Notes: generated from the sequence alone by a model not told the origin. A stretch of DNA of 64,000 bases from Candidatus Thalassarchaeaceae archaeon (GCA_034399535.1 DASCSS010000010.1:2096-66095); one strand, 5' to 3'; shown: positions 33,987-51,528, numbered from the stretch's first letter. Program-made: numbers and translations.

Positions 33987-34718
33987 GTGACCCCTCCGGG
34001 TGACATGGACCCTAGCGTGGAGGCTGCAGTTGCCGCTTTCTCAAGGGGAGAGCCGGTGATGATATTCGACTCGGCCTATCGCGAGAGGGAGACAGACCTT
34101 CTCTGGCCTGCTGCCGCTGCCTCACCAGAAGTGATGCGCAGGCTGCGGAAGGATTGTGGGGGACTTCTATTTCTGGCGATTGGAAATGAGGTGGGGGAGA
34201 AGTTCGGGCTACCCTGGCTACAGGATATCCACACCCATCCTTCATTATTGGAGGAAAATCCTGTACTTGGTCACCTGATTACCAATGACCTGCAGTACGA
34301 CAATAGATCTGCCTTCACGGTATCATTGAACCATCGCGATACCTATACTGGAATCACAGACAGGGATAGGTCCCTGACAACTAGGAGGTTTGGAGAACTG
34401 ACCATGGAGGCCTTCGAGAATGATTTGGGTTTCAATGAGGCTATTGCGGCATTGGGAGTAGAATTCAGAACACCGGGTCACATTCCAGTTTGCAGGGAAT
34501 CCCCAGGGGGTTTGACTACACGACAGGGTCACACCGAACTGGCCGTTGCAATCGCAAGGTTAGCTGGATTGGTCCCATGTACCATAGGGGCAGAAATGCT
34601 TGAGCCGGATGGAGACGGTGCCCTCTCCGTAGATGAAGCAATGAAGTATGCTTTCAAACATGGAATTCCCATGATTACTGGAGAGGAAATCACTTCCGCA
34701 ATGGAAGAAAAAGATTAG
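33987..34718 (+). CDS. ribB: 3,4-dihydroxy-2-butanone 4-phosphate synthase.
   Basis: Archaeal-type RibB motifs …GEPVMIFDSAYRERETDLLWPAAA… and …TPGHIPVCRE…. Confidence 0.8.
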   Translation: MTPPGDMDPSVEAAVAAFSRGEPVMIFDSAYRERETDLLWPAAAASPEVMRRLRKDCGGLLFLAIGNEVGEKFGLPWLQDIHTHPSLLEENPVLGHLITNDLQYDNRSAFTVSLNHRDTYTGITDRDRSLTTRRFGELTMEAFENDLGFNEAIAALGVEFRTPGHIPVCRESPGGLTTRQGHTELAVAIARLAGLVPCTIGAEMLEPDGDGALSVDEAMKYAFKHGIPMITGEEITSAMEEKD

Positions 34719-34745
34719 GCGGGACTGTCTTCTAGGGGTTCTAAC

Positions 34746-35204
34746 ATGGTTCGAGTGATGGCAGTGGGAATCTTCGATCTTCTCCATGCGGGACATCTCC
34801 ATTACGTCGAGCAGGCCAAAACATTGGGAGATGAACTCGTTGTCGTAATAGCTCACGATGAAACGGTTCGATTGCAGAAGCACGAGCCTGTCACTGGTCA
34901 AGAGTTACGTAGGAGGATGGTAGAGGGGCTTAAGCCAGTAGATACTGCAATCATTGGCAACCCCCCCGGAGTACCAATTTTTGAGATTCTGAAGACGATT
35001 GAACCTGACATAATCGCTCTCGGATACGACCAGAAGCACTCAATTGATTCCATTAAAGAGGGAATGGAAAAACACGGATTCGGACATGTCAGAGTGATGC
35101 GTGTAGAGGGCCTCTCAGACGATCTAGACGGAACAAGAAAGATCATTTCGAGGATCTTAGACCTTTGGCCGAGTTCAGAGGGTGGACCTTACGAGGAAGA
35201 CTAG
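34746..35204 (+). CDS. ribL: FAD synthetase, archaeal CTP-dependent RibL (cytidylyltransferase-like).
   Basis: N-terminal MVRVMAVGIFDLLHAGHLHYVEQA (HxGH nucleotidyltransferase motif). About 150 aa. Sits in the rib cluster. Confidence 0.75.
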   Translation: MVRVMAVGIFDLLHAGHLHYVEQAKTLGDELVVVIAHDETVRLQKHEPVTGQELRRRMVEGLKPVDTAIIGNPPGVPIFEILKTIEPDIIALGYDQKHSIDSIKEGMEKHGFGHVRVMRVEGLSDDLDGTRKIISRILDLWPSSEGGPYEED

Positions 35205-35808
35205 TATGTATACCGGAATTGTTGCCGGGACTGCCCCTGTATCAGAAATAAAGGAGGGCGAGGGCGTTCGTACGCTATCTATTGATCTTGATGGATACTC
35301 AGATGGACTGGAGGTTGGCGCAAGTGTTGCACTCGATGGGGTTTGCATGACGGTGGTTTCAATGGAAGGCACGGAGGTTCAATTCGATGCCATAGAAGAA
35401 ACACTGCAAAGAACCACACTGGGTGAGATTACGTCGGGAGAGGTTGTGAACGTCGAACGGTCGTTGAGGGTTGGAGACGAGATAGGGGGTCACATTCTGT
35501 CAGGTCACATAATGACGACTGCGAAGATTGCTAGAAAGGAGAATCGGGGAGAAGGATTGGATATTATAGTGGAGAATCCTGACAGGGCTCGGCCCTTCAT
35601 TTTGGAAAAGGGATTCATTGGTATCGATGGCATGTCTCTGACAATTGGCGAGGTATCGGAAGAGGAGTTCGCACTGCATATCATCCCCGAGACCCTAAGA
35701 ATCACGACAATTGGCCTCAAGGAAGTTGGGGACAGAGTAAATTTGGAGGTTGACTCGCACACCCAAGCAGTGGTCGAGACGATGTTGAGGATGGAGGGGG
35801 GATTGTGA
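35182..35808 (+). CDS. Riboflavin synthase, bacterial-type (alpha chain with two lumazine-binding repeats).
   Basis: MYTGIVAGTAPVSEI…LDGVCMTVV and a second repeat …GHIMTTAKIA…GIDGMSLTIGEV. Overlaps ribL by about 23 nt. Confidence 0.8.
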   Translation: MDLTRKTSMYTGIVAGTAPVSEIKEGEGVRTLSIDLDGYSDGLEVGASVALDGVCMTVVSMEGTEVQFDAIEETLQRTTLGEITSGEVVNVERSLRVGDEIGGHILSGHIMTTAKIARKENRGEGLDIIVENPDRARPFILEKGFIGIDGMSLTIGEVSEEEFALHIIPETLRITTIGLKEVGDRVNLEVDSHTQAVVETMLRMEGGL

Positions 35809-36200
35809 ATCTAGGAATTGTCTGTGGTTCGTTTCATCGCAAGGAAATAGAAATAATGCTCGAATATGCAAAAGAAGAAGCTGCTGAAAAAAACTGGGAG
35901 GTTGCCGATGTAGTGTGGGTCCCGGGTTCGATGGAAGCCCCTCTGGCCCTTGATAGGTTGCTGCAGAGGGAAGGAATCCAGGGTGCGGTTGTGTTGGGAA
36001 TAATTGAACGTGGGGAAACCGATCACGGGCTCGTAATGGGACAATCAGTAACTAGAGCCGTAATTGAAATTCAGATTAAGCACAACAAGCCGATTGGACT
36101 AGGGATTATCGGTCCGGGAGCGGAACCAGAGCACATCGGCCCTCGTTTAGAACCCCATGCCAGAGCTGCAGTCGGTGCTGTTGCCGCTATGGCAAAGTAA
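35805..36200 (+). CDS. ribH: 6,7-dimethyl-8-ribityllumazine synthase.
   Basis: 131 aa with …VVWVPGSMEAPLAL…GAVVLGIIERGETDHGLVMGQ… typical of lumazine synthase. Overlaps the upstream gene by 4 nt. Confidence 0.85.
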   Translation: MNLGIVCGSFHRKEIEIMLEYAKEEAAEKNWEVADVVWVPGSMEAPLALDRLLQREGIQGAVVLGIIERGETDHGLVMGQSVTRAVIEIQIKHNKPIGLGIIGPGAEPEHIGPRLEPHARAAVGAVAAMAK

Positions 36201-36207
36201 TCGCTAT

Positions 36208-36531
36208 TCACTGTCCTGGAAGCCTGAAATTTCCTAGATCAGCACTAGTAATCTTATCCATCTCCTCCACAGAAATGAGGGGGGTTAGTTTTCCATTGAA
36301 TACTCCTGAAGCCCCAACGGCAAGGGAGAAGGCAGTAATCTTGACATTGTCCGGAACATCCATGATGCACATGAAATCTTTTTCTCCATAACACCAGTAG
36401 TACGCTTCGAGCGTACCTCCAAATGATTCCGCGATTCTCACGGCCTCATCCCTACGAGCTGTTCCACCTTCCTTTAGGAGACCTGCAGCACCTTCAGCAG
36501 TATAGCTTCCTGAAAACATGAATTTGGGCAT
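36208..36531 (-). CDS. GYD-domain protein.
   Basis: MPKFMFSGSYTAEG…EAYYWCYGEKDFMCIMDVPDN… matches the GYD family (YGEYD). ATG at 36531 gives 107 aa. The longer ORF runs to 36609. Confidence 0.6.
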   Translation of the reverse strand: MPKFMFSGSYTAEGAAGLLKEGGTARRDEAVRIAESFGGTLEAYYWCYGEKDFMCIMDVPDNVKITAFSLAVGASGVFNGKLTPLISVEEMDKITSADLGNFRLPGQ

Positions 36532-36641
36532 AAAATGGACAGTTTTTGATTGATATATTACTATTTTGGACGGTTTTCGGATAGGAAATATTGATTTCAT
36601 CACGGTCAAGATTCAAAGGATGCCGAGTCTCACGATAAGAT

Positions 36642-37571
36642 ATGGGAGAAGCGGCTAGGAGAGTTGTCATCATTGGCTCGGGACCTGCAGGTTATACTGC
36701 TGGCCTATATGCAGCTAGAGCTCTGCTTGAACCGCTAATGTTTGCCGGGTACATGTCAGGAGGTCAGCTAATGCTAACTTCAGATGTGGAGAATTTTCCA
36801 GGATACCCTCAAGGTGTTGAAGGCCCCGCGATGATGGTACACATGAGAGATCAGGCAGAGAGATTTGGTCTCGAGATTCAAGACAAGAATGTGGAGCGAG
36901 TAGATCTCTCAGAGCGTCCATTCGGAGTTTGGGTAGAAGGAGAAGAGTTCCGTGCAGAGAGTCTGATAATTTGTACTGGGGCCGAAGCGATATGGCTAGG
37001 GGCAGAGGGCGAAGATGAGCAGAAGGGGAGGGGAATTTCCACATGTGCAACCTGTGATGGCGCATTCTTCCGGGATGAGGAGATTATTGTAATAGGTGGA
37101 GGAGATTCTGCGATGGAAGAGGCCATCTTCCTAACCAGATTTGCAAGCAAGGTGACCATAATCCATCGTAGAGATGTTTTCAGATCATCAAAAGTGATGT
37201 ACGAAAGGGCTGCTAAACATCCGAAAATAGAAATCAAAACATTCCGACAAGTGAAGAAATGGATGGCCAATTCAGATGGCCTTACTGGAGCTCTGCTTGA
37301 AGATCCAAGAGACGGTTCGGAAGAGGAAATAGGATGTTCTGGTGCATTTATTGCAATTGGCCACAAGCCAATTACAAACTTCCTAGAGGGACAATTGAAG
37401 ACTGACGGAGAAGGGTACCTGATGCATGTTGACAATACTATGACGAACGTAGCCGGAGTCTTCGCTGCTGGTGATGTCGTCGATAAGAGATACCGGCAGG
37501 CAATAACTGCTGCAGGAATGGGTTGCCAGGCGGCCATAGATGCAGAAAGATGGTTGGAAGATCAGCGCTGA
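36642..37571 (+). CDS. trxB: Thioredoxin-disulfide reductase.
   Basis: FAD motif VVIIGSGPAGYTAGLYAAR, redox-active CATCDG, NADPH motif VIGGGDSAMEEA. 309 aa. Confidence 0.9.
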   Translation: MGEAARRVVIIGSGPAGYTAGLYAARALLEPLMFAGYMSGGQLMLTSDVENFPGYPQGVEGPAMMVHMRDQAERFGLEIQDKNVERVDLSERPFGVWVEGEEFRAESLIICTGAEAIWLGAEGEDEQKGRGISTCATCDGAFFRDEEIIVIGGGDSAMEEAIFLTRFASKVTIIHRRDVFRSSKVMYERAAKHPKIEIKTFRQVKKWMANSDGLTGALLEDPRDGSEEEIGCSGAFIAIGHKPITNFLEGQLKTDGEGYLMHVDNTMTNVAGVFAAGDVVDKRYRQAITAAGMGCQAAIDAERWLEDQR

Positions 37572-37697
37572 GACCTGCCCATGTTCAGCCCCATGGTGTT
37601 CGAAGTTCGGTAAACCTCGGGTTAATTGTCCGAGATTACCCTTGAAAGAAGTGCCTTGACCGAAGGGCACTTGTCATCTATCCCTTCTCGCAGAACC

Positions 37698-38801
37698 ATG
37701 AAGGGCGGCCTGAGTGATGACCAGATGGAGCGATATGCCCGACACATCTCTCTTCCGGGGGTTGGTGAGGAAGGCCAGTTGTTAATGCTGAGTTCCTCGG
37801 TGTTAGTCATTGGAGCAGGAGGTTTGGGTTCGCCTGCCCTACTATATCTCTCTGCAGCGGGTGTGGGAAAAATTGGAGTAATGGATCATGACTCAGTTAG
37901 CCTGTCAAACCTACAGAGGCAGGTGATTCACTCAAATGCGGCGATTGGTGAATCGAAGGCCATCTCTGCTGCACGAAGAATTTCGGAACTCAATCCTGAT
38001 GTGGAAGTCGTTGCAATAGGTGAAAAACTGACTCATGAAAATGCAATTGATATTTTCGAAGATTTTGACGTTATATTGGACGGAACTGATAATTTTGAAA
38101 CTAGATATCTGATTGGGGACGTTTGTGAAGTTCTAGAAAAGCCATGGGTTTTCGGAAGCATACACAGATTCGAGGGGCAGGTATCGACATTCAATCTCAA
38201 GGGTGGGCCCAACTACAGGGACCTGTTTCCCCAGTCCCCTCCACCAGAACTTGCACCCAATTGCGCCGAAGCCGGCGTTCTTGGGGTCCTTCCTGGCATT
38301 GTAGGAACGATTCAAGCCACTGAGGCATTAAAGATAATTCTGAATATTGGAGAAACATTAGATGGGAATCTGCTAACAATTAATGCAAAAGACATGGATA
38401 TGAGAAAGCTGTCATTCAACTTGGATGCTAGTAGAGAACGTGTGAGTTCTACAAATTTCCCAACGCAAGTGAGTTTCGCAGAAATCAGTCCAATTGACTT
38501 CGTAGAACGCTCCAATGACGGTTGGGCGCCATTTCTGCTGGATGTTAGAGGGGCAGAGGAAGAGCAGATCACCACATTAGATGGGACAGATTTGCGTATT
38601 CAGCATCTCCAGGTCCCCTCAAGAATTCATGAAATCCCTCAAAACAAAGACATCGTAGTGTATTGCAGGATTGGTAGCAGATCTGCTGCTATTGCCAGAT
38701 TACTAGTTGAGTCAGGAAGACCCCCTGAGAGCATCTACAACCTATTCGGGGGAATTCACCTATGGGCCGACACGGTAGATTCTTCAATAATTAAATACTA
38801 A
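37698..38801 (+). CDS. ThiF/MoeB-family E1-like adenylyltransferase with C-terminal rhodanese domain (MoeB/UbaA-like).
   Basis: …RYARHISLPGVGEEGQLLMLSSSVLVIGAGGLGSPALLYLSAAGVGKIGVMDHDSVSLSNLQRQ… and a rhodanese active-site Cys in VVYCRIGSRS. The ORF is open from a TTG at 37626. ATG at 37698 is preferred. Confidence 0.8.
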   Translation: MKGGLSDDQMERYARHISLPGVGEEGQLLMLSSSVLVIGAGGLGSPALLYLSAAGVGKIGVMDHDSVSLSNLQRQVIHSNAAIGESKAISAARRISELNPDVEVVAIGEKLTHENAIDIFEDFDVILDGTDNFETRYLIGDVCEVLEKPWVFGSIHRFEGQVSTFNLKGGPNYRDLFPQSPPPELAPNCAEAGVLGVLPGIVGTIQATEALKIILNIGETLDGNLLTINAKDMDMRKLSFNLDASRERVSSTNFPTQVSFAEISPIDFVERSNDGWAPFLLDVRGAEEEQITTLDGTDLRIQHLQVPSRIHEIPQNKDIVVYCRIGSRSAAIARLLVESGRPPESIYNLFGGIHLWADTVDSSIIKY

Positions 38802-38938
38802 TTGTGGTAAAAAGTTATTTAATTACTGTTTTTATTGTGGTATATTAGACATATTTGGCAATAGATTCGTGAAAATTCTCAATACTATCATTAAATGTGG
38901 TAATTTACTAATCAGTATACCGAATAATTGTTGTACTA
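38802..38938. promoter_or_regulatory. Strongly AT-rich intergenic island carrying three TGTGGTA repeats and TATA-like elements, immediately upstream of the fused E1 gene.
   Basis: About 22% GC against about 52% for the window. TGTGGTA occurs at 38803-38809, 38836-38842 and 38896-38902. TTTACTAA and AGTATAC lie about 20-35 nt upstream of the ATG at 38939. Confidence 0.4.
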
Positions 38939-41839
38939 ATGTTTGTTATCAGTACTATGTTCAATGGACGTCATGGAGTATGGGGGTGCCCCCATTGCAA
39001 TTTTCATCAGACTTGGAAAACTAGATCACAAAGGTCTAGCAAACTAGACAGGAAATGTGGAAAATGCGGAGAAAGGGCCAGGGTTACCCTCGATAGGTCC
39101 ATTTCAGGGAAGGGTCGTACCAGGAAGGTCCGGATATGGGAGAGGCCGCTGTCATGCAGTATGGAGCAGTTAGAAAAAGAGGCGAGGAGGAGGAACTCAG
39201 ACGATGGAATTGTCAAAAAAAGTGGAAGTGATCATGTTGAAGATATGGAAAATGGGAAAACACAAGCAGACCTTCCTCCAATCTGGGGTGCTGGTTGGTG
39301 GCCAAAAGAATCCCTTGATTTTCCAACTCCCTTAGATCTCAACGGAGTTAGGACAGAACTGCTCAGGTTCGTGACAGAAAGGAATGATGGACATCTTGAA
39401 ACTGTAGTCAAATGCTGGGATTCAATGGATCAAGAAAGATCTTTGGGTGGCTCTGAATTTCATATATTTTCCAAGAAATTACTTCTGGAAATTGAAAAAT
39501 GTCTCGAGGAGCGGATGCTTGGTCCCGACTTTTCGCCATTGATGGAAGAGGAAATAATTCCAAGGAGGTCTGGAGGGGCATACTTGAGCAGGCGTGCAGT
39601 TAGATTTCTGATTGATGTGTCTCTATGCTTACGGAGAATTGCCTACTACGCTTCAATCTCGCTGGATCTTAGAGAACAATGGCAAAGATGGATGACTCGA
39701 ACCCGATTAGTAGATGAACAACTCAAGGAGCTGTTCGCATCAGGACTACCTACGCCGGATGGTGGGAGTTTTGGAGGGAAAGGCTTCAGATCCACTTGGC
39801 AAGAGGGGATAGTGTCCTGTGCATCGTCCATGAGTAGATCCGTTGATTTGCCATCTGAAGAGAGGCATCGTGCAGACATAGTGGCCCCAATGATCAGAGA
39901 TATGGGGCTTGCAATTGCTATGGGGCAGACGCCAGAAGAGGTTTTTGCAGCGCAAATGGGGAAATCGGAATCAAATATGAATGGTGGAAATCATGGCTGT
40001 GGGGGGAGGGACCTTCACATCGGGAATTGGGAGAAGAGAGTCCTTCCACCGACTGCCCCCCTGCCTATAGCCAGTGCGACAACCACTGGATTAGCATTGG
40101 CAGCAAAAAGATTGGGGATTGATAGATTTCACCTTGCACCTGTAGGAGAAGGGTGCAGCAGCAGTGGAGAGTTTTGGGAGGCAATGAACTTCGCAGGGGT
40201 TCGGGGGCTCCCGATATGTTTCATGATTCAGAATAACCAAATTGCCCTGGACACCTTTGCATCTGTTCAGTCGGCAGCAGAAACATTCGGTGACAAGGGG
40301 ATCGCAATGGGGATCCCATCATGGACAATCGATGGTTCCGATCCGGCCATGTTCTACAGCTCAACATCTGTTGCAAGGGAGTTTGCACGAGGGGGCGGAG
40401 GAGCGACACTGATTCATGTAGAGACGATGCGTGGATGCGGACATGCACATCATCACGATGACTTGTATCTTGGAGCGTCCAGCGGAAACCCCCCTGGATA
40501 CGTCGACAGGGATTTGTTGTCTTACTGGGCCAAAAAGGACCCGCTTCCAAACCATAGGGAACTATTGATTCAACTAGGTTCAAATGAGGCTTCAATCGCA
40601 AGAATGGAGAAATCCGAAGAGGAGATGGTGGAAGGGGCTAGAAGGGCGGTTGAGGAGATGGAGTGGCCAGAGGGACACTCTGTTACGCGGGGAGTGACTT
40701 CTCTGCACGATGCCCCATCACACGAGCAGCAACTATTGAGGATTGATTCGGGTTCGGGAGGGGGAGATTCCCCCTTACTTCCGGGCAAGATGTCGATTAG
40801 TTTCTCGGATTTGCCAGGTTCTTGGACATATAGCAAGGCAATTCAAAATGGTCTGGCTGCATTGGCTGACAAGTATGGTGAGGAGATTGTTTTCATGGGG
40901 GAGGACATGGAAATAGCTGGAGCATTCGGAATGAATCTACCATTGAAAGCAAAGGGGCATCAGGAAAAATTGCTAGACATGCCATTGTCAGAGTCAATCA
41001 TAATCCACTCGGCTACCGGTGCGGCCCTAGGAGGGATGAGACCCGTTGCTGAAATTCAGTTCGGGGGGTTTGCATCTCTAGCTATGAATCCACTAATCAA
41101 CAATGCGGCTCAACTCAGATGGAGGTGGGGAGCAGACGTGCCAATGACAGTTAGAATCCCACTTGGAGCAAAGACTCGGAGTGGCCCCTTCCACGCGAAC
41201 ATGATTGAATCGTGGTTTGCCAATGACCCGGGTCTAGTAATCGTGGCACCTAGTACTCCGCAGGATGCCTATGACTTGCTAATTGAGGCCCATGAACTAC
41301 CCGATCCAGTTATCTTCCTGGAGCATATTGGACTGTATGGCCTAAGAGGGGGAAATACTGGTTGGGGGAATTCAATAAACCAACTGGTTGATTCCGATGC
41401 TGTCCATGAAAGACTCAGTGAGGGTTTGAATTCAATCGGTGAGGCACGAATAATTCGTGGGGGGAGGGATCTAACAATTGTGACTTGGGGGGCCATGGTC
41501 CACGTCGCTATCGAAGCGGCAATGAACGCATCAAAGAAGGGTTTGGAGGTGGAAATTATTGACCTGAGAACGCTTATTCCGATGGATTCGCAAACGTGTG
41601 TGGAATCAGTCCTAAGAACGGGGAAGCTACTTGTTCTTCAGGAAGCCCAATGGACAGGTGGAATCGGTCACACGGTTTGTAGCAGGATAATTGAGGAGGC
41701 ATTCTGGAGCCTTGATTCGCCCCCAATAGTAATTGGAGCTCTTGACACCCCCGTTCCATTCTCGCCCACCTTGGAAGACTATACCGTCCCTTCAGCATCC
41801 TTGGTGTCCCGTCACATAGAGAGGGCTTGCATGCAATAG
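38939..41839 (+). CDS. Fused 2-oxoacid dehydrogenase E1 component (TPP-dependent E1 alpha followed by E1 beta) with a ~190-aa N-terminal extension containing a zinc ribbon.
   Basis: Zn ribbon CPHC-X17-CGKC at aa 17-43. E1 alpha-like region with …GGNHGCGGRDLHIG… and TPP motif …PVGEGCSSSGEFWEAMNFAGVRGLPICFMIQNNQIALDT…. E1 beta-like region from about aa 618 (…GEDMEIAGAFGMNLPL…LLDMPLSESIIIHSATGAALGGMRPVAEIQF…). Single ORF. Alternative internal start ATG at 39515 (MLGPDFSPL…). Confidence 0.75.
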   Translation: MFVISTMFNGRHGVWGCPHCNFHQTWKTRSQRSSKLDRKCGKCGERARVTLDRSISGKGRTRKVRIWERPLSCSMEQLEKEARRRNSDDGIVKKSGSDHVEDMENGKTQADLPPIWGAGWWPKESLDFPTPLDLNGVRTELLRFVTERNDGHLETVVKCWDSMDQERSLGGSEFHIFSKKLLLEIEKCLEERMLGPDFSPLMEEEIIPRRSGGAYLSRRAVRFLIDVSLCLRRIAYYASISLDLREQWQRWMTRTRLVDEQLKELFASGLPTPDGGSFGGKGFRSTWQEGIVSCASSMSRSVDLPSEERHRADIVAPMIRDMGLAIAMGQTPEEVFAAQMGKSESNMNGGNHGCGGRDLHIGNWEKRVLPPTAPLPIASATTTGLALAAKRLGIDRFHLAPVGEGCSSSGEFWEAMNFAGVRGLPICFMIQNNQIALDTFASVQSAAETFGDKGIAMGIPSWTIDGSDPAMFYSSTSVAREFARGGGGATLIHVETMRGCGHAHHHDDLYLGASSGNPPGYVDRDLLSYWAKKDPLPNHRELLIQLGSNEASIARMEKSEEEMVEGARRAVEEMEWPEGHSVTRGVTSLHDAPSHEQQLLRIDSGSGGGDSPLLPGKMSISFSDLPGSWTYSKAIQNGLAALADKYGEEIVFMGEDMEIAGAFGMNLPLKAKGHQEKLLDMPLSESIIIHSATGAALGGMRPVAEIQFGGFASLAMNPLINNAAQLRWRWGADVPMTVRIPLGAKTRSGPFHANMIESWFANDPGLVIVAPSTPQDAYDLLIEAHELPDPVIFLEHIGLYGLRGGNTGWGNSINQLVDSDAVHERLSEGLNSIGEARIIRGGRDLTIVTWGAMVHVAIEAAMNASKKGLEVEIIDLRTLIPMDSQTCVESVLRTGKLLVLQEAQWTGGIGHTVCSRIIEEAFWSLDSPPIVIGALDTPVPFSPTLEDYTVPSASLVSRHIERACMQ

Positions 41840-41845
41840 GCATGA

Positions 41846-42850
41846 ATGTACGGAAGAGTCATCAGTACTCTTCTCTGGGGGGAAAACGTGAATGACGGAT
41901 TAATCGATGTCGCATACATCTTAGTTGGTTTCATATTCCTAATGACAGGTGGAGAGGGGCTGGTCCAGGGGGCCGTGAGGATTTCTGGGAAGCTCCAAAT
42001 TCCTCCACTACTAGTTGGGTTTACCGTCGTGGCAATTGGTACCTCGTTACCAGAGTTGGCTGTGGCCCTCCAGGCAGTGAGTAGTGGTTCAGAGGAAATA
42101 GCCGTGGGAGGGGTTCTAGGTTCGAACGTGGCAAATGTAATGCTGGTTCTCGGAAGTGCGGCTTTACTGGGCGCATGTTCAGAACCCGACAAAGGAACGG
42201 GAAGAGACTCAATAGCAGTAATGGTATGTACAACATTCTTACTTTTCTTCGTTCTTTTGGGGGAGATTCCCCTCTTAGGAGGGGTAGTAATGGTAATCGG
42301 GCTAGTGGGATACTACTGGTACGCGTACAGGGATGCTAGGAAATCTGGGGAACAGATAGAGCTAGCAGATTCTTGGCTTCCGGATAAGTTGACATTGGCG
42401 GTTCCAACATGCATATTGGGGGGATTAATGATTTGGCAAGGAGCAGTACTTCTGGTCGAAGGAGCCACGGGGGTAGCGACAAAGTACGATATCCCCGAAG
42501 ATGTGATTGGCCTGACGTTGGTTGCACTGGGGACGTCGCTTCCGGAATTAGCAGTAACCCTTGTCGCTGGACTACGAGGGCAAGGTGGGGTGGCCATCGG
42601 AAACGTTCTCGGCTCCAATGTGATGAATATCCTCGGTATCTTGGGCACAGCGGCGATTTACGCCCCGGGAGGAGGTTTGGAGATAGCTGGAGAGTTTGCA
42701 AGCAGGGACATCTGGGTTGTAATGGCCACTTCGGGATTCATTGCCTGGATGCTCCTGTCGGGAAGGGATATTGACAAGAGATCTGGATTTGCAATGATTT
42801 GCACATACCTGGTATACATGGGATACTTAGGATACGTTGGAATTGTATAG
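41846..42850 (+). CDS. Na+/Ca2+ exchanger family (CaCA, YrbG-like) membrane protein.
   Basis: Two alpha-repeat signatures GTSLPELAV(A/T)L, one in each half of a ~10-TM protein. Confidence 0.8.
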   Translation: MYGRVISTLLWGENVNDGLIDVAYILVGFIFLMTGGEGLVQGAVRISGKLQIPPLLVGFTVVAIGTSLPELAVALQAVSSGSEEIAVGGVLGSNVANVMLVLGSAALLGACSEPDKGTGRDSIAVMVCTTFLLFFVLLGEIPLLGGVVMVIGLVGYYWYAYRDARKSGEQIELADSWLPDKLTLAVPTCILGGLMIWQGAVLLVEGATGVATKYDIPEDVIGLTLVALGTSLPELAVTLVAGLRGQGGVAIGNVLGSNVMNILGILGTAAIYAPGGGLEIAGEFASRDIWVVMATSGFIAWMLLSGRDIDKRSGFAMICTYLVYMGYLGYVGIV

Positions 42851-42879
42851 CACTATTACCTCCCTCCAAGTCCGAGTTC

Positions 42880-43467
42880 GTGTCAACAGTCTGTTGCGTT
42901 GTCCTAGCAGCAGGATTCAGTGAGAGGCTTGGTGAAGAAAAGGCCTTGTTGGAAACTGGGCAAGGGCCACTAGTTGGTTGGTTGGTAAGTAGATTAGTAA
43001 GTCATGGCATAAACCCTGTAGTGGTTACTAGAAGAGGCATTGCATCAGAAGTGGAGAGTTCTGTGCTTCCCTGTGAAGTTGTTGTTAATCAAATTCCTGA
43101 AGACGGTAGGACGGGAAGTATCATTGTTGGTATTTCGAAGCTCGATCGGGATTTTGGTGAAGGGTACAGGCTACTGGTAGTACCGGTTGACAGACCTGGT
43201 TTCTCTGATTCTACTTTGATGAGGTTAATCAGTTCAGAGGTAACTTGTTGCCCCTCTAAAGACGGCAGGGGAGGGCATCCCATCCTCCTCTCCAAGCGAG
43301 ACGTGGAAATAATTAGGAGTGCCCCCCATGATGCCCCCTTGCGGTCCATTATTTCGAAAGAAAGATTCCAAGTGAACGATCGATTTCTTCATTTGAATAT
43401 CGATTCTACGGAAGATTTGGAGGACTTTAGGGAATTAATGGAAAACATGGAGGAATCCGGAGTTTGA
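42880..43467 (+). CDS. MobA-like nucleotidyltransferase (molybdenum cofactor guanylyl/cytidylyl-transferase; possibly MocA given neighbouring XDH-family genes).
   Basis: N-terminal VVLAAGFSERLGEEKALL matches the MobA LAGGxSxRMGxDK motif. The ORF is open from 42799, overlapping the upstream gene. GTG at 42880 is preferred. Confidence 0.55.
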   Translation: MSTVCCVVLAAGFSERLGEEKALLETGQGPLVGWLVSRLVSHGINPVVVTRRGIASEVESSVLPCEVVVNQIPEDGRTGSIIVGISKLDRDFGEGYRLLVVPVDRPGFSDSTLMRLISSEVTCCPSKDGRGGHPILLSKRDVEIIRSAPHDAPLRSIISKERFQVNDRFLHLNIDSTEDLEDFRELMENMEESGV

Positions 43468-43489
43468 GAATCTATTTACGGAAAGGGAT

Positions 43490-44320
43490 GTGCCCTCGCA
43501 CATGGACATCATTGACCTGATTAGTGGTTTGGGTCCAGTTCAGCAAGCATTTGTTGCCGGACTTTTTACCTGGTTCATGACAGCTGCCGGAGCTGGTCTA
43601 GTTATTCTGTTCAATGAAATTGATAGGAAGTTGCTAGATGCAATGCTTGGATTCGCTGCTGGGGTAATGATTGCAGCCAGTTTCTGGTCTCTTCTTTCCC
43701 CCTCTCTAGAAATGTCCGAAGGAAAGGATTTACCTGTTTGGTTTCCGGCATTGGTTGGTTTCCTATTGGGGGGAGTAGGCATGAGATCAATCGATATGTT
43801 CCTCCCTCACCTCCATCCAGGTGCTCCTCCTGAAGAGGCTGAGGGAGTAAAGACCTCGTGGCACAGAAGCATGCTCCTTGTATCGGCAATCACCCTCCAT
43901 AATGTACCGGAGGGCTTGGCCATTGGAGTGGCATTCGGGGCTGCAGCTTCTGGATTTGAGGGAGCCACAATTGGGGCTGCTGTTGCCCTTGCAATAGGGA
44001 TTGGTATCCAAAACTTTCCGGAAGGTGCTGCAGTGTCCCTTCCTCTGAGAAGAGAGGGTTTGTCCAAAAGATCAAGCTTCCTATGGGGTCAACTATCGGC
44101 AACTGTAGAGCCCGTAGCAGCTGTATTGGGCGCAGCCCTAGTGATGGCCATGGAGCCAATTCTTCCTTACGCTCTGGCATTTGCTGCTGGAGCAATGATT
44201 TTCGTGGTTGTTGAAGAGTTGGTTCCCGAAGCCCATAGAGGGGGGAATGGGGATATTGCCACAATGGGGGTCATGTTAGGTTTCTCTATCATGATGGTTC
44301 TAGACGTCGCTTTCGGTTGA
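43490..44320 (+). CDS. zupT: ZIP-family zinc/metal transporter (ZupT-like).
   Basis: Signature HNVPEGLAIGVAFGAA and QNFPEGAAVS. About 8 TM helices. 276 aa. Confidence 0.8.
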   Translation: MPSHMDIIDLISGLGPVQQAFVAGLFTWFMTAAGAGLVILFNEIDRKLLDAMLGFAAGVMIAASFWSLLSPSLEMSEGKDLPVWFPALVGFLLGGVGMRSIDMFLPHLHPGAPPEEAEGVKTSWHRSMLLVSAITLHNVPEGLAIGVAFGAAASGFEGATIGAAVALAIGIGIQNFPEGAAVSLPLRREGLSKRSSFLWGQLSATVEPVAAVLGAALVMAMEPILPYALAFAAGAMIFVVVEELVPEAHRGGNGDIATMGVMLGFSIMMVLDVAFG

Positions 44321-44365
44321 TGGGGTTAAGCGTAACCACAAAGGTGAGAGCCCGTTCACAGGATC

Positions 44366-45211
44366 GTGACTCGTGCAGTACTGGAATGGGTGCTGGAACA
44401 GTTGAGCGGAGGGGAGAGGGTGGGTCTTGCCTCAGTAATAGAAGCAAGTGGGAGCGTTCCAGGGAAGCCTGGGGCTAGAATGGCAATCTCATCTGCAGGG
44501 TCAAGGTACGGCACCGTTGGGGGTGCAGGACTTGAGAAATCCGTAGAAGACTCACTAAGAATTATGCTTGAGTCAGAGGACCGTAATTCTAGAAAGAAGG
44601 GGGGCAGGGTAGAGAGCTACATTCTCCATCGAGAGAGGTTGGGGAAGGAAGAAACTGCTTTGGACAGCCTCTGTGGTGGAAAGGTCACGGTTACCATGGA
44701 AATTCTCGAGCCCCTCCCTCACGTATTGATTGCCGGCGGGGGCCATGTTGGTCGCTGTATTGCGATTGTGTGCGATACTCTTGGATGGTCCCATAGCGTG
44801 TATGATGTTCGGGAGGAATTCGCAAATGAAGAGAGGTTCCCCTTCGCAAGCGAATTGCATTCTAGTGAGGTAGAAGAATTCCTCACCATAGAAGGCATAG
44901 AGAACCTGAAGCGTTTTTCTGATGTCCTTCTGTTGAGTCATGACTGGTCTGTGGATGAGAATTTACTAATCCGTTTGCTTGACCAAAGAGGTGATGCCAG
45001 GAGACCCAGAATTGGTGCCATAGGTTCGAAATCCAAGTGGGCATCATTCCGAAAATCGGCAATTGATTCGGGCATTCCGGTAGAAGATGTTGAATCCGTC
45101 AGATGTCCAATCGGCTTGAATATCGGAGCTGACTCCCCTGAAGAAATCGCACTCGCTGTTTGTTCGGAGATTCTTTCACTCGATAAGGGAGTCAATCTCT
45201 CCGAAGACTGA
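44366..45211 (+). CDS. XdhC/CoxI-family molybdoenzyme maturation factor.
   Basis: N-terminal XdhC_CoxI domain (…LASVIEASGSVPGKPGARMAI…YGTVGGAGLE…) and a C-terminal Rossmann-like domain (VLIAGGGHVGRCIA). Confidence 0.7.
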   Translation: MTRAVLEWVLEQLSGGERVGLASVIEASGSVPGKPGARMAISSAGSRYGTVGGAGLEKSVEDSLRIMLESEDRNSRKKGGRVESYILHRERLGKEETALDSLCGGKVTVTMEILEPLPHVLIAGGGHVGRCIAIVCDTLGWSHSVYDVREEFANEERFPFASELHSSEVEEFLTIEGIENLKRFSDVLLLSHDWSVDENLLIRLLDQRGDARRPRIGAIGSKSKWASFRKSAIDSGIPVEDVESVRCPIGLNIGADSPEEIALAVCSEILSLDKGVNLSED

Positions 45212-45236
45212 AATTAACCGACAAGTCCGGAATGAC

Positions 45237-46454
45237 ATGAGATTGGCTCCGGCTATGCTGTCAATCCTCTTGGTTCTGGCCCCTTCCAGTGGTTGCCTTT
45301 CCAATGAAGACGTGGGTGGCCAAGAAGAAATCGATGAGGTTCCTGTTTTCGGCCCGTTCAGCGTTGTTGCGCCAATCGATACAGGAATAAACGTCTATCA
45401 CAACCACTTCGTAATGAATGAATCCTATCCACAGTGGTTGCTTGATCAACTTGGAGTGAACCTTGTTTGTGAAATCAGCACCAATGGAACGTGGCAAGAG
45501 CGCTATGATGCTGACAAAGAGAATTGTTGGGACATTATCGTCGCAGGGGACATAGTTTGGTTCAAGGGGACCAAGATTATTGGGACTAGCCCAGATGATG
45601 ATACAGACATTCCAATCCTAGACGATCCCCAAGACGGACATGGGACGGCAGTTACTGGAGCGGTGTTGAACGCTAATCCAAATGCTGTAATTTTCTTTGT
45701 AGAAGGATTCAGTGACGCAGCAGTTTTAGCTGCGGCAAATCAGCCTTTAGTTGACATAATTACGACAAGTTTCGGTCCAATCCTATCCGTCCCCGTCCCG
45801 GGAATTGAAGATGCGACAAAGGTTGCTGTAGTTGAAAAGAAGAAGATTCATACTGGAGCTGCGGACAATTCCCCATCCCCTGCAATACAGGACTCTACCG
45901 CTGGCCCTCCTTGGAGCATAGGCATATCCGGCTATGCCGAAGAGGACGACGACCAGAAGGAAACGATGAGTGGCTCTTACCCGGATGTAGCGGCCGATTG
46001 GACACAAGTTCTTCCCAATCACGATGACATTGATGGTTATCACCAAACCTCTGGGACTTCTTTTGCAACTCCCCGGACTGCGGGTCTCCTGTCCGAAGTC
46101 CTGGAGACACTAAGAAATGAGTTTGGGGACGTGTCTTCGGGTGCTGATCCAATTAATCGTCTCGGCAAGCTGGTTAATGGTACCAATTTCACCCTAACGA
46201 ATGACGAATTACGTGATGCCTTGAACCTCTCTGCTTGGTATCCATCTTTTTCCACCTGGGACCCCCTATCGGGAACGACTCCCGTATCTCCGATTTTGCC
46301 GTGCACCCAACTGGGTTGGGGAGTAGTTAACAAGAGCAATGTCATCCCGATCATTGAGCATCTGAATGGGACATCACAAATCCCCCAGAGGCCTAGTGAT
46401 GTGGTAATGTGCATGGAAACCAATCAAGCAATTCGGGAAGCCTACTGGGGATAA
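45237..46454 (+). CDS. Secreted subtilisin-like serine protease (S8), lipoprotein-like signal.
   Basis: Signal …LLVLAPSSGCLSNED. Catalytic contexts VVAPIDTGIN (Asp), DGHGTAVTGAV (His) and SGTSFATPRTAGLL (Ser). Confidence 0.75.
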   Translation: MRLAPAMLSILLVLAPSSGCLSNEDVGGQEEIDEVPVFGPFSVVAPIDTGINVYHNHFVMNESYPQWLLDQLGVNLVCEISTNGTWQERYDADKENCWDIIVAGDIVWFKGTKIIGTSPDDDTDIPILDDPQDGHGTAVTGAVLNANPNAVIFFVEGFSDAAVLAAANQPLVDIITTSFGPILSVPVPGIEDATKVAVVEKKKIHTGAADNSPSPAIQDSTAGPPWSIGISGYAEEDDDQKETMSGSYPDVAADWTQVLPNHDDIDGYHQTSGTSFATPRTAGLLSEVLETLRNEFGDVSSGADPINRLGKLVNGTNFTLTNDELRDALNLSAWYPSFSTWDPLSGTTPVSPILPCTQLGWGVVNKSNVIPIIEHLNGTSQIPQRPSDVVMCMETNQAIREAYWG

Positions 46455-46480
46455 TTTTTCGACGGGTTGAATATCAATGA

Positions 46481-47143
46481 ATGGATGCGGGGAGTATGAG
46501 GAAGGTACTCCTGAGATGGAAGGTTTCCTCGCTTGGCGGACTAAAAGAAATCGGCAGATTGCTAGAAATTGTTGAGAGGATAGAAGTCCTTGGTCACCTT
46601 TCCTTTGGAGAAGAGGGGGTTACTCAGCTAGTGGAGTTAAAGCTGCGTCCAGGACACGAAATAAATGAGATTTCTGAGATGGAAAATTTTGAGTTTATTG
46701 AGATTCATGAGGAAGATGAGAATGGAATATTGGCCAGTATATTGTGCACCCACCCACTTGCCAGGACGGCCATAGAATTGTCAAACATTTACGTAAATCC
46801 GCCTTATGGAATTGATTCAGAGAGGGGAATGGAAATTCGCATGTACGGCCTTTCCGATTCCATCCGTAGGTTAATTGGACTTGTGAGGGCATTGATGCCT
46901 CCAGACAGCATTAGTGTTCAGACATTCAAAACTAACGGATTCTCAGACTATGATTTCCTAACTGAAAAGCAGAGGGATGCCCTAGAGCTCGCCGTTAGGA
47001 GGGGTTACTACGACGAAGACTCCAGCGTCACTCTGAAACAACTAGCAGATGAAATGGGAATTGCCAGAAGCACTATCGGGGAGCACCTCAAAAGGGTAGA
47101 GACGCAAATCATGAAGAAGGCTGGAGAGGAGCTGTCGTCATAA
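46481..47143 (+). CDS. HTH_10 (bacterio-opsin-activator-type) transcriptional regulator.
   Basis: C-terminal …LTEKQRDALELAVRRGYYDEDSSVTLKQLADEMGIARSTIGEHLKRVETQIMKK matches the Bat-type HTH_10 DNA-binding domain. Confidence 0.65.
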   Translation: MDAGSMRKVLLRWKVSSLGGLKEIGRLLEIVERIEVLGHLSFGEEGVTQLVELKLRPGHEINEISEMENFEFIEIHEEDENGILASILCTHPLARTAIELSNIYVNPPYGIDSERGMEIRMYGLSDSIRRLIGLVRALMPPDSISVQTFKTNGFSDYDFLTEKQRDALELAVRRGYYDEDSSVTLKQLADEMGIARSTIGEHLKRVETQIMKKAGEELSS

Positions 47144-47195
47144 TTGTTGTACTGAACCGAATGCTCAAAGGATGACTCTGCTTGTGTCGGTATGA

Positions 47196-47768
47196 ATGGT
47201 GCAGTACCGGCTACCGATGCTCCCGCATCCAAAGGAAGAAAGCTGGGGGGCCGAAGTCAATGGAGTTGCAGTCAATGCCGCAATAGAGAGTAATGCGATT
47301 CTTCTAGATGTCCTGAGGGATCAGGTGGGGAGCCTGGGTACCAAGAGAGGATGCGATTTGGGCACCTGCGGTTGCTGCTCCGTGCTAGTTAATGGTAAAC
47401 CGAGATTATCCTGCCTTACGCTGGCCACTGAAGTAAACGGATCAAATATAACCACGGTTGAAGGCCTTTCAGATGGTCATCATTTACATCCCATCCAAGA
47501 GACATTCACTGAGTACGGTGGAAGCCAGTGTGGCTTCTGTACCCCTGGATTCCTAGTCGTCATTTCTTCACTCCTTGAAGAGAATCAAGCGCCTACAGAC
47601 AAGGAAATAAAATCTGCAATAGAGGGAAATTTGTGCCGGTGCACTGGGTTTCAACAAATCGTAGATTCGGTTAGAGCGGCATCAGAAATTCTGGTTTCGG
47701 GGACCAACATAGTGGACTCCACAGCACCGAAGAGTGACCCTCACCCTGGTTTTGAAGGAGATACATAA
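47196..47768 (+). CDS. [2Fe-2S]-binding small subunit of xanthine dehydrogenase / CO dehydrogenase family molybdoenzyme.
   Basis: Plant-type ferredoxin cluster …CDLGTCGCCSV… and a second cluster …CGFCTPGF…CRCTGF…. Confidence 0.85.
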   Translation: MVQYRLPMLPHPKEESWGAEVNGVAVNAAIESNAILLDVLRDQVGSLGTKRGCDLGTCGCCSVLVNGKPRLSCLTLATEVNGSNITTVEGLSDGHHLHPIQETFTEYGGSQCGFCTPGFLVVISSLLEENQAPTDKEIKSAIEGNLCRCTGFQQIVDSVRAASEILVSGTNIVDSTAPKSDPHPGFEGDT

Positions 47769-50548: not shown

Positions 50549-51528
50549 AGATGCCACCTTTCCAAGTTTATTCGCCTACTACTCTGGAAGAAGCCATGAC
50601 TAAGGCTTCGGAACTGTCTGACTCTGGAAATGAGTTCGACTGGATAGCAGGTGGGACTGACCTTCTGCCGAATTACAAATGGCACATCAATGTCAAGAAG
50701 CATGTTATTTCTCTTGCTGCAATCAATGAATTGCATAAGCTCTCCGGAACCCACATAGGGGCAATGGTAAGGATACACGATTTGGCCAGCTCAGAGAATA
50801 CTCACAGTGTTCTAGCCAAGGCTGCTGACTCCATAGCAAGTGTTATGATCAGACGTTCTGGTACTGTCGGGGGAAACATTTGCCTGGACACAAGATGTTA
50901 TTGGTTCAACCAATCAGAAACCTGGAGGGAGTCGATAGATTGGTGCCACAAATGCGACTGTGGCACAGAAGCTGATTGCAGGGTCATTCCAAATCAAAAC
51001 ACTCTTTGTGTAGCGACGTATCAGGCAGATCTGGCTCCAGTTCTATTGTGTCTGGATGCCACAATTCACCTTGCCTCACCCTCTGGAACTCGTTCATTGC
51101 CCCTGGAAGATTTCTTCGAGCTAGATGGGATGACTAGGAATGTCCTAGGAAACGACGAGCTTGTTACTCACGTTACCCTTCCAGATGATTCCGGGGAATG
51201 GGATGGGGACTATCAGAAACTGAGGCAGAGAGAGTCTTGGGACTTCCCGGAAGCAGGGGTTGCTGTTCTATGGAAGAGCGATGGGGATGGAATTCCATCG
51301 GCCCTAAGGGTGGCCACAACTGGTCTGGAGTCAGTACCTGGGATTCACACACAAGCGGCTGAGGCTGCAATTTCAGACTGGAAAGGTGGGGAGTCAATAG
51401 ATGAACTCGCAGAATCGGTCAGGAAGTCCGTGAAGCCCGTCCAGAACACATGGTTCTCCCCTTCGTATAGACGAAAGATGGTGAAGGTCTTAACGAGGCG
51501 TGCTTGCAGGGGTCTACTGGTGAGGTAG
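50545..51528 (+). CDS. FAD-binding medium subunit (CoxM/XdhB-like) carrying a Cys-rich insertion.
   Basis: FAD_binding_5 motifs (…DWIAGGTDLLP…, …SGTVGGNIC…). After GGNIC there is an inserted segment, LDTRCYWFNQSETWRESIDWCHKCDCGTEADCRVIPNQNTLC, with 7 Cys. Overlaps the upstream gene by 4 nt. Confidence 0.8.
   Translation: MKMPPFQVYSPTTLEEAMTKASELSDSGNEFDWIAGGTDLLPNYKWHINVKKHVISLAAINELHKLSGTHIGAMVRIHDLASSENTHSVLAKAADSIASVMIRRSGTVGGNICLDTRCYWFNQSETWRESIDWCHKCDCGTEADCRVIPNQNTLCVATYQADLAPVLLCLDATIHLASPSGTRSLPLEDFFELDGMTRNVLGNDELVTHVTLPDDSGEWDGDYQKLRQRESWDFPEAGVAVLWKSDGDGIPSALRVATTGLESVPGIHTQAAEAAISDWKGGESIDELAESVRKSVKPVQNTWFSPSYRRKMVKVLTRRACRGLLVR

Follow-up and report, generated by a model that had tools for sequence, protein, structure and literature searches.

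A single-chain 2-oxoacid dehydrogenase E1 of Marine Group II archaea with a basic zinc ribbon akin to proteins of ~4.6-kb circular elements

Architecture and conservation of the fused E1 gene

A 64,000-nt stretch of DNA from a Candidatus Thalassarchaeaceae archaeon (GCA_034399535.1, DASCSS010000010.1:2096-66095; hereafter the window) holds on its plus strand an uninterrupted open reading frame (ORF) of 966 amino acids (aa), at 38939..41839, with the stop codon at 41837-41839. It encodes the alpha and beta parts of the E1 component of a 2-oxoacid dehydrogenase as a single chain, preceded by an N-terminal extension with a four-cysteine zinc ribbon. The product is 100% identical to a database protein (P0001) that occurs on nine contigs and whose 90% cluster bears the name Candidatus Thalassarchaeaceae archaeon. 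An initial annotation, made from the sequence of the window, had described this three-part architecture, and both the translation and a Pfam scan of the 966-aa product agree with it. E1_dh matched aa 311-574 (3.2e-38, 131.8 bits vs a gathering cut-off of 22), Transket_pyr aa 630-800 (4.1e-23, 82.4 bits vs 27) and Transketolase_C aa 834-953 (3.3e-31, 108.2 bits vs 25.9), in the expected order. All domains share one frame, with no frameshift between the alpha and beta parts, and this uninterrupted frame is kept in at least 74 genomes. The motifs quoted in the annotation, GGNHGCGGRDLHIG, PVGEGCSSSGEFWEAMNFAGVRGLPICFMIQNN and ESIIIHSATGAALGGMRPVAEIQF, were all found in the product.

Residues are numbered here from the ORF as first called, which includes a leading MFVIST. 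The most likely true coding sequence starts at a conserved ATG (Met7), spans 38957..41839 and encodes 960 aa. From there, and on the same strand, follow a basic four-cysteine zinc-ribbon domain, aa 8-69 (38960..39145; C17, C20, C40 and C43), with five predicted beta-strands, and a predicted helix, aa 70-86 (39146..39196; LExEAxRRN), which belongs to the ribbon module. Next come an acidic, variable linker, aa 87-108 (39197..39262), predicted to be disordered (predicted local distance difference test, pLDDT, below 50), and a helical N-domain specific to the Poseidoniales, aa 109-204 (39263..39550; LPxIWGAGWxP ... ERHDGH). The catalytic core consists of a divergent E1alpha module of the type that binds thiamine diphosphate (ThDP) and Mg, aa 205-600 (39551..40738), as placed by Pfam and alignments, a connecting linker between the Pfam domains, aa 601-628 (40739..40822), and an E1beta module with the catalytic Glu E685 (40823..41836), as placed by Pfam and by the alignment to the solved chain 3duf_B.

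The N-terminal extension is made of three parts, namely the ribbon with its helix, the acidic linker and the helical domain. It exists as the initial annotation had it, but the length of ~190 aa given there is too short: residue 46 of a bacterial single-chain E1 aligns to window aa 250, so that the part beyond a normal E1alpha comprises approximately aa 1-204. In the same way, the ribbon cysteines, in C17-P-H-C20 and C40-G-K-C43, lie at nt 38987-39067 as described, but a direct count on the translation gives a spacer of 19 residues between the two cysteine pairs, instead of the 17 reported. Pfam returned no match at all for aa 1-300. Its zinc-ribbon models and all others were blank over the extension, of which the initial annotation had called ~150 aa unrecognised.

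Ribbon included, the full architecture recurs with 64-77% identity across 80 or more species-level genomes of the Thalassarchaeaceae (Marine Group IIb, MGIIb). When one genome was scanned for each species, relatives turned up in 204 genomes; the best 80 of these match from query residue 1-11 to the end, save two that are clipped by contig ends. The long form is present in 120 of the 120 top homologues, almost all of them 950-1000 aa long, with 67-77% identity and 99% query coverage. Those among them that are named belong to the Poseidoniales/Thalassarchaeaceae, that is, to the Marine Group II (MGII) archaea. Judged by these comparisons, the conservation of the architecture is far beyond chance.

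Two metagenome-assembled genomes (MAGs) labelled 'Candidatus Neomarinimicrobiota bacterium' (L034 and L085) also bear the archaeal locus, with 68-71% identity, and are probably mis-binned archaeal contigs. On a 1.2-Mb long-read contig from MGIIa (L093 10001-12609), the fused E1 and several of its neighbours are broken into two or three ORFs. Such breaks are typical of indel errors and are not evidence for a split gene.

Selection along the gene was estimated as the ratio of nonsynonymous to synonymous substitutions (dN/dS, Nei-Gojobori), using 74 genes from species genomes and 98 pairs with dS 0.05-1.2. The ratio is 0.038 for E1beta and 0.044 for E1alpha, and rises through 0.065 for the ribbon (aa 8-69), 0.077 for aa 201-240, 0.11 for the helical domain (aa 109-200), 0.165 for the alpha-beta linker and 0.20 for the helix after the ribbon (aa 70-86), to 0.46 for the acidic linker (aa 87-108), where pairwise identity is 12%. 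By this measure, the gene is under very strong purifying selection, and the constraint on the ribbon nearly matches that on the catalytic core. Furthermore, the four ribbon cysteines are invariant in 74 of 74 genomes (CPxC-X19-CxxC). The low dN/dS of the ribbon and its invariant cysteines indicate that the ribbon is translated, and bear out the long form put forward by the initial annotation.

Catalytic core, partner enzymes and proposed role

The closest solved chains belong to the pyruvate dehydrogenase (PDH) E1 of G. stearothermophilus, with E1beta 3duf_B (E = 4e-54) and E1alpha 1w85_A (E = 6e-28). E685 aligns with the catalytic Glu of 3duf_B (LAESGI), and the active-site-loop His, H502 (CGH), aligns with the GPH of 1w85_A; both residues are invariant in the family. 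The ThDP/Mg motif reads GEG-X26-NN (aa 403-433). The NN metal ligand is kept, and the Mg-ligand Asp of the canonical GDG is replaced by Glu E404 (G403-E404-G405 at nt 40145-40153, E404 at 40148-40150), which is invariant in both MGIIa and MGIIb. Equally invariant in the two groups is the change of YRxHG to IRDMG (I319-G323, nt 39863-39877), in which the Arg and the Gly alone are retained. Aligned with 1w85_A and with the bacterial single-chain E1, the alpha module shows GGRDLH in place of GGSMH. The active-site loop is rich in His (GHAHHHDD; 40439-40465, aa 501-509, and onward) and does not vary within the family; it has a 9-residue insertion, HHDDLYLGA, relative to the G. stearothermophilus E1alpha. 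These substitutions suggest that GEG and IRDMG may go along with an altered binding of metal or cofactor.

All NCBIfam equivalogs for PDH E1 scored below their cut-offs, with 144.5 of 411 bits for TIGR03181, 104.8 of 394 for TIGR03182 and 193.6 of 454 for NF008854. Because these scores are far below the equivalog cut-offs, the protein should not be named a PDH E1, and pyruvate should therefore not be taken as its substrate. The fused gene is routinely labelled 'bkdA' or 'TPP-dependent enzyme' (TPP, thiamine pyrophosphate, being ThDP), and gene callers often trim its N-terminus. In the sources, the MGII proteins go by 'alpha-ketoacid dehydrogenase subunit alpha/beta' or by '2-oxoisovalerate dehydrogenase E1 component', and JGI and KEGG-based pipelines file them as single-chain E1 (K11381, 'bkdA'). 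The label 'bkdA / 2-oxoisovalerate dehydrogenase E1' is a pipeline label only.

The initial annotation regarded the fusion of alpha and beta as unusual. This view is not tenable, as the single-chain architecture is established, with a separate KEGG orthologue, K11381, for the single-chain alpha-beta E1 (PMC11815872), and a bacterial example adjoins a lipoyl-E2 gene. This bacterial example, from Fuscovulum blasticum (WP_228156887.1, 'dehydrogenase E1 component subunit alpha/beta'), is similar to the MGII E1 in having the same three domains in the same order on one chain. BLASTP aligned the core of the two proteins end to end (32% identity over 708 columns, E = 4e-79). The Fuscovulum protein differs in its length of 697 aa, without an N-terminal extension, and in its canonical GDG, HRGHG and GGSMH, whereas the MGII E1 has ~204 extra N-terminal residues, GEG/IRDMG/GGRDLH and the loop insertion. 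Moreover, the Fuscovulum E1 gene is directly adjoined by a downstream gene for dihydrolipoamide acetyltransferase (lipoyl-E2), whereas the MGII E1 has no E2 in cis.

The classical split E1alpha and E1beta of archaea (Thermoplasma-type operon; MG2_0836-0840) belong to the same superfamily and have the same presumed chemistry. They are encoded by separate genes, co-operonic with those for E2, E3 (dihydrolipoyl dehydrogenase) and lipoylation, and have neither a ribbon nor helical N-domains. Unlike them, the fused MGII gene stands unlinked, behind a promoter array of its own. Archaeal 2-oxoacid dehydrogenase complexes are documented to depend on lipoylation (PMC3904984). The G. stearothermophilus PDH E1 (1w85/3duf) shares with the MGII E1 the aligned catalytic Glu, NN and loop His, but is a heterotetramer of separate chains, with GDG and without the 9-residue insertion or the N-terminal domains. 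The E1s of haloarchaea, too, differ in their split alpha and beta genes, and they carry no zinc-ribbon or helical N-domains. In Haloferax volcanii, two of the three 2-oxoacid dehydrogenase clusters reportedly have no E2/E3 of their own, as van Ooyen and Soppa are said to have described in 2007. The three clusters are paralogous within one archaeon, which sets a precedent for several E1 sets in a single genome, and their substrates are distinct or obscure (PMC3235422). Compared to these systems, the single-chain alpha-beta E1 is already known as an enzyme type. New are the MGIIb-specific basic ribbon, which is kin to proteins of ~4.6-kb elements, the helical domain of the Poseidoniales, the divergent cofactor-site motifs and the promoter array.

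Regular expressions, not profiles, served to search for partner genes in cis; they covered the lipoyl domain, the E3 disulfide and the E2 catalytic domain by their hallmark motifs. Neither the 64 kb of the window nor the 1.58 Mb of 92 related loci contained any of these motifs, and in the 92 loci no E2/E3 lay within 10 kb of the fused E1. On the grounds of these scans, a hidden E2/E3 in cis was rejected, and the earlier observation that none is nearby holds true for the window and for all 92 related loci.

The initial annotation had concluded further that the enzyme may work outside a classical complex for want of partners. This is not supported, in view of an MGIIb MAG with the same gene, SIMO Bin 19-2 of genus O1, for which an annotation table is available (Damashek et al. 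2021, PMC9723583, supplementary file 4). Its contig 1 encodes, consecutively, lipB, dihydrolipoyl dehydrogenase, lipoyl-E2 (K09699, PF00364), E1beta (K00167), E1alpha (K00166) and lipA, in an operon orthologous to MG2_0836-0840 (PMC9723583). Another contig of this MAG carries 'bkdA K11381' (orthologue of MG2_0557) ahead of genes for a CaCA antiporter, an acyl-CoA dehydrogenase and an S8 peptidase (PMC9723583), a gene order that equals the synteny of three of our loci (L002-L004). For this MAG, annotated with both the operon and the fused gene, some transcripts were recruited (PMC9723583 supplement), and transcripts of pdhA and pdhC were reported (PMC9723583). Because SIMO Bin 19-2 also holds a complete lipoate-dependent operon, the fused gene most likely represents a second, paralogous E1, with its partners in trans.

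We thus favour, with moderate confidence, a reading in which the fused gene encodes a second paralogous single-chain E1 of the Poseidoniales, served by a lipoyl-E2 in trans and equipped with the ribbon as a tethering or regulatory module. The single chain would form a homodimer equivalent to an alpha2-beta2 tetramer and would decarboxylate a 2-oxoacid in a ThDP-dependent manner. An amino-acid-derived substrate is likely, because of the peptide/amino-acid lifestyle of the group and because an acyl-CoA dehydrogenase is encoded two genes downstream in some genomes. The acyl group would then be passed to the lipoyl-E2 encoded in trans. E2 and E3 would be shared with the classical E1, and the fused E1 would add another substrate range or another regulation. 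On its flexible acidic tether, the ribbon would bind a polyanionic partner, most likely nucleic acid, and would serve localisation or regulation rather than catalysis. Nucleic acid is the likely partner because of the ribbon's charge and of the part that its homologues likely play in replicons without any other recognisable DNA-binding protein. Expression of the gene would be governed by a dedicated array of phased GTGGT boxes and TTGTTGTAC.

Marine Group II archaea, which are uncultured, rank among the most abundant archaea of the plankton, and their carbon and amino-acid catabolism has been deduced from annotation alone. They appear to have two E1 systems, the second of which has a divergent cofactor site and two lineage-specific N-domains; the operon of the first is seen in related genomes.

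Several points weigh against the proposed role. The E2/E3 operon has been documented in a related genus (O1) and in MG2 (MGIIa) but, in the genome that the window comes from, is inferred from its occurrence in both MGIIa and MGIIb. The binding of the fused E1 to a trans-encoded E2 is putative. The alpha module departs from a canonical E1alpha (GEG, IRDMG, loop insertion) and has sub-cut-off NCBIfam scores, a divergence which could mean that its cofactor binding or chemistry is different. Searches by sequence and by fold turned up nothing of known function that is related to the ribbon or the helical domain, and the arguments for a tethering or nucleic-acid role are charge, zinc-ribbon precedent and homologues on mobile elements. 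Finally, the circular elements that were examined carry neither the GTGGT nor the TTGTTGTAC motif.

The main rival, which takes up the idea of the initial annotation, is a stand-alone enzyme, in other words a free ThDP decarboxylase, carboligase or acceptor-dependent oxidoreductase that uses no lipoyl-E2. For example, its aldehyde product might be oxidised by the nearby molybdenum enzyme of the xanthine dehydrogenase (XDH)/aldehyde-oxidase family, or the enzyme might use another acceptor. Such an enzyme would be in line with the fact that E2/E3 are never adjacent in the 92 loci, with the divergent alpha motifs and sub-cut-off equivalog scores, and with the presence of molybdenum-cofactor neighbours in both MGIIa and MGIIb (ThiF-rhodanese, MobA-like, XdhC, and the XDH-family operon 5-8 kb downstream). 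A PICRUSt-based survey also lists gut taxa with K11381 and without the K09699 E2 (PMC11815872). However, the molybdenum-gene synteny may simply mirror genome collinearity within one order, and a 14-mer found before the XDH-family operon in the window, described below, is not conserved in other genomes. In known E1s, the C-terminal domain of E1beta forms the E2-binding site. The fused E1 has retained this domain in full, with a dN/dS of 0.038, and has kept the active-site-loop His. Furthermore, the bacterial single-chain homologue is operonic with E2, and an E2/E3/lipoylation set is present in a genome bearing the fused gene. Altogether, we consider a stand-alone enzyme unlikely and prefer the second E1 with a lipoyl-E2 in trans.

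The ribbon module and its relatives on circular elements

The consensus of 19 ribbon sequences reads MxxGRxGIWxCPxCxxHQxWKTR...LDRxCxxCxxRxRVTLDRSxSGxGRxRxVEIWER. AlphaFold predicts five strands for the ribbon and then a helix (pLDDT 85.7, predicted template modelling score 0.71), with the CxxC knuckles on predicted strands, and thereafter the disordered linker and the helical domain. In the E1 family, the ribbon has a mean net charge of +10 and a pI of 10.9; the remainder of the E1 is acidic, and the linker of aa 87-108 has a net charge of -2.7.

The orthologues of MGIIa (Poseidoniaceae) begin with MxQGxLPPIxGxxWxP, aligned to window aa ~108. They occupy the same syntenic locus, with rib genes, thioredoxin reductase and ThiF-rhodanese on one side and CaCA and acyl-CoA dehydrogenase on the other. 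At one MGIIa locus, an MFS gene ends 34 nt upstream of the fused E1 and leaves no space for a ribbon. Because the MGIIa orthologues start at the helical domain, a comparison of the extension across relatives, as proposed by the initial annotation, separates an order-wide helical domain, common to MGIIa and MGIIb, from a ribbon-helix-linker module that is specific to MGIIb.

Neither of the two N-terminal segments gave a match in Pfam or PHROGs. The ribbon matched no described zinc-ribbon family in Pfam or the PDB, and a PDB profile search with the ribbon alignment returned nothing significant. Relatives were found with a profile built from aa 7-238, which yielded 116 matches among 1.84 billion representative proteins, mostly fragments of the Poseidoniales fused E1. 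A second tier of matches comprises complete proteins of 86-180 aa that consist of a ribbon and a helix (e.g. P0210, P0176 and P0171). These standalone homologues of aa 8-86 have profile E-values of 1e-14 to 1e-4. An alignment of 25 sequences is gapless over ~80 residues, with G7, the four Cys, R40, R47, G53-R54 and N80 shared, and the helix after the ribbon aligns with the standalone homologues through an invariant Asn. Like the MGII ribbon, the standalone proteins are strongly basic, with net charges of +10 to +19. They differ from it in being free-standing, in having 'ERPSYMP' instead of 'IWER' and C-terminal tails of their own, and in having their genes on tiny circular replicons. Among predicted viral structures (BFVD), Foldseek retrieved A0A345N471 (E = 2.7e-5, template modelling (TM) score 0.73, 30% identity) and A0A345N4I4 (E = 1.3e-3).

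The contigs that encode the standalone proteins have a maximum length of 4.2-4.9 kb in ~15 clusters. Three of them (L094, L095 and L097) are 100%-identical rotations of one another, with terminal overlaps and a unit of 4,642 nt, a fourth (L098) is a concatemer with a period of 4,624 nt, and two more (L005 and L006) have terminal overlaps. The rotated identical contigs, the terminal overlaps and the concatemer indicate that the ~4.6-kb contigs are circular replicons. These replicons (L094-L098, L005-L007) encode the ribbon protein, some of them also Dam and C5 DNA methylases, and six small ORFans on the other strand. The elements recur in many metagenomes, and their GC content of 36-59% suggests that their hosts are probably diverse. 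PHROGs and Pfam assigned no family to the neighbours of the standalone ribbon genes, scans of IMG/VR with two standalone proteins found no relatives by close match, and tblastn against INPHARED gave no match. As far as the searched libraries show, the ~4.6-kb replicon family is previously uncharacterised.

Based on this sequence kinship, the ribbon module of the fused E1 was most likely captured from a ~4.6-kb circular element, the direction of transfer being itself a deduction. Its role is most likely the tethering of nucleic acid or of a partner; no structural match of the ribbon to a DNA-binding ribbon was significant. If the ribbon does tether the enzyme, this would be a clear case of a mobile-element protein turned, through domestication, into a regulatory add-on for an enzyme of core metabolism, and the fused E1 would offer a handle on the biology of the elements. 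Otherwise, there would still be a corrected start codon and domain map, and the idea of an E2-less E1 pathway would still be disfavoured.

Upstream array, start codon and gene neighbourhood

The spacer of 137 nt upstream of the ORF holds three copies of TGTGGTAWWW, of four in the whole 64 kb (expected 0.45). All elements of the array are on the plus strand. The distal GTGGT box, TGTGGTAAAA (38803..38812), forms a phased pair with the second box, TGTGGTATAT (38836..38845), 33 nt further on. After another 60 nt follows the proximal box A, TGTGGTAATT (38896..38905), the A/T-rich half of which is a candidate TATA box, and then box B, TTGTTGTACTA (38928..38938), a conserved and gene-specific element that likely represents the transcription start site (TSS) with the leader region, or an operator. 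Box B has one exact copy in the window.

In 61 of 76 genomes, the consensus of box B, TTGTTGTA(C/T)(T/A)A, begins at -28 to -30 relative to the conserved ATG, and in 69 of 76 it is preceded at a distance of 30-32 nt by box A (nGTGGTn). Further GTGGT boxes, 33 nt apart, are found near -121 and -154 in the alignment anchored on the conserved ATG. The composite of box A and box B occurs once per locus, invariably before the fused E1 gene (76/77). Phased GTGGT pairs lie at most 320 nt upstream of the fused E1 in 73 of 79 genomes, with 13 elsewhere in 1.5 Mb. From these alignments, the array of phased GTGGT boxes and TTGTTGTAC is specific to the fused E1 gene, with its position kept in ~75 Thalassarchaeaceae genomes. 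Rfam found no RNA family in the spacer and 5' region. At the three ribbon-less MGIIa loci the GTGGT/TTGTTGTAC array is absent, and two of the three available MGIIa promoters carry TTGCGTYTGTATG, which is loosely similar to box B. A joint acquisition of promoter and ribbon is unsupported, given that the circular elements have no box B and are not enriched in GTGGT.

A 14-mer at window 47141-47154, ATAATTGTTGTACT, equals the core of box B and lies just past the HTH_10 gene, 42 nt before the XDH-family operon. A regulon shared with this operon was rejected, since the 14-mer is not conserved there in other genomes; it is probably due to chance or lineage-specific.

The specificity of the array bears on another explanation, namely that the fused E1 is a trigger enzyme. 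The ribbon would then make the E1 bind DNA or RNA and regulate its own or other genes via the GTGGT/TTGTTGTAC array, coupling the state of substrate or cofactor to expression. We regard this as quite improbable, despite several observations that fit: the flexible tether carries a ribbon of strongly basic character (+10), the tiny replicons that encode its small, basic homologues have no other recognisable DNA-binding protein, and the phased boxes are specific to this gene in ribbon-bearing genomes and absent at the three ribbon-less MGIIa loci. On the other hand, just three MGIIa promoters are available and two of them carry the loosely box-B-like TTGCGTYTGTATG, the circular elements are without the motifs of the array, an unrelated transcription factor could bind the array, and the ribbon has no significant structural match to a DNA-binding ribbon. 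A more specific form of this explanation, slightly less probable again, would have an MGIIb ancestor fuse the DNA-binding ribbon of a tiny circular virus or plasmid to its E1, creating a nucleic-acid-binding trigger enzyme that senses the 2-oxoacid/ThDP state and controls its own promoter or other targets. The interest of the gene would grow considerably if the ribbon conferred nucleic-acid binding or autoregulation.

An ATG is found 3-6 codons ahead of the G(I/V/L)W-C motif in 76 of 78 genomes, and its counterpart in the window is nt 38957 (Met7). The ATG at 38939, taken as the start by the initial annotation, has no counterpart in other genomes and abuts box B. When 78 upstream regions are aligned, a GGAG is seen in most species ~10 nt ahead of the conserved ATG; in the window, no Shine-Dalgarno motif is obvious ahead of ATG 38957. 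By comparison across genomes, the start is most likely ATG 38957 rather than 38939. A leaderless mRNA from 38939, as suggested earlier, is unlikely, and the conserved ATG 38957 together with the GGAG favours a short leader. If the A/T-rich half of box A is a TATA box, the TSS would fall on box B and the leader would be ~28 nt long. The internal ATG at 39515, which had been named as the alternative start, is disfavoured by purifying selection upstream of that codon.

That the ribbon is an annotation artefact, being a separate small upstream ORF, untranslated, or skipped by an internal start (ATG 39515 or Met75), is hardly credible: public gene calls of 892 aa and 893 aa do start downstream, and the Shine-Dalgarno motif is not obvious in the window, but the frame from ribbon to E1 is free of stops in at least 74 genomes, dN/dS is 0.065 in the ribbon and 0.11 in the helical domain, the linker changes in length solely by multiples of three nucleotides, a conserved ATG lies directly ahead of the ribbon, and the 893-aa call (P0132) used an in-frame GTG downstream of an intact ribbon.

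The two shorter calls, for near-identical or related proteins, both leave out a ribbon that the DNA encodes intact and in frame. In HJM13067.1 (P0336, 892 aa), the NCBI gene call begins at Met75 and omits the ribbon. P0132 begins at the internal GTG, with the ribbon intact and in frame in the DNA (L010 7930-8070), and was rejected as a ribbon-less member, its call being a gene-calling artefact.

The fused E1 is flanked on the plus strand by a ThiF + rhodanese gene (MoeB/UBA4-like, 37626..38801) upstream and a CaCA (Na_Ca_ex) antiporter gene (41846..42850) downstream, the neighbours that the initial annotation had named. Both are in conserved synteny, the antiporter in MGIIa and MGIIb. The adjacency to ThiF-rhodanese is conserved synteny, and a functional link with the fused E1 is putative. 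Further upstream, the block within 33987-38801 comprises ribB, a RibL-like gene, riboflavin synthase, lumazine synthase, thioredoxin reductase and ThiF-rhodanese. The downstream block within 42799-52481 comprises a MobA-like transferase, a ZIP transporter, XdhC, the HTH_10 regulator and the XDH/aldehyde-oxidase-family operon of three genes. This cofactor-related neighbourhood of the fused E1 is conserved in both MGIIa and MGIIb.

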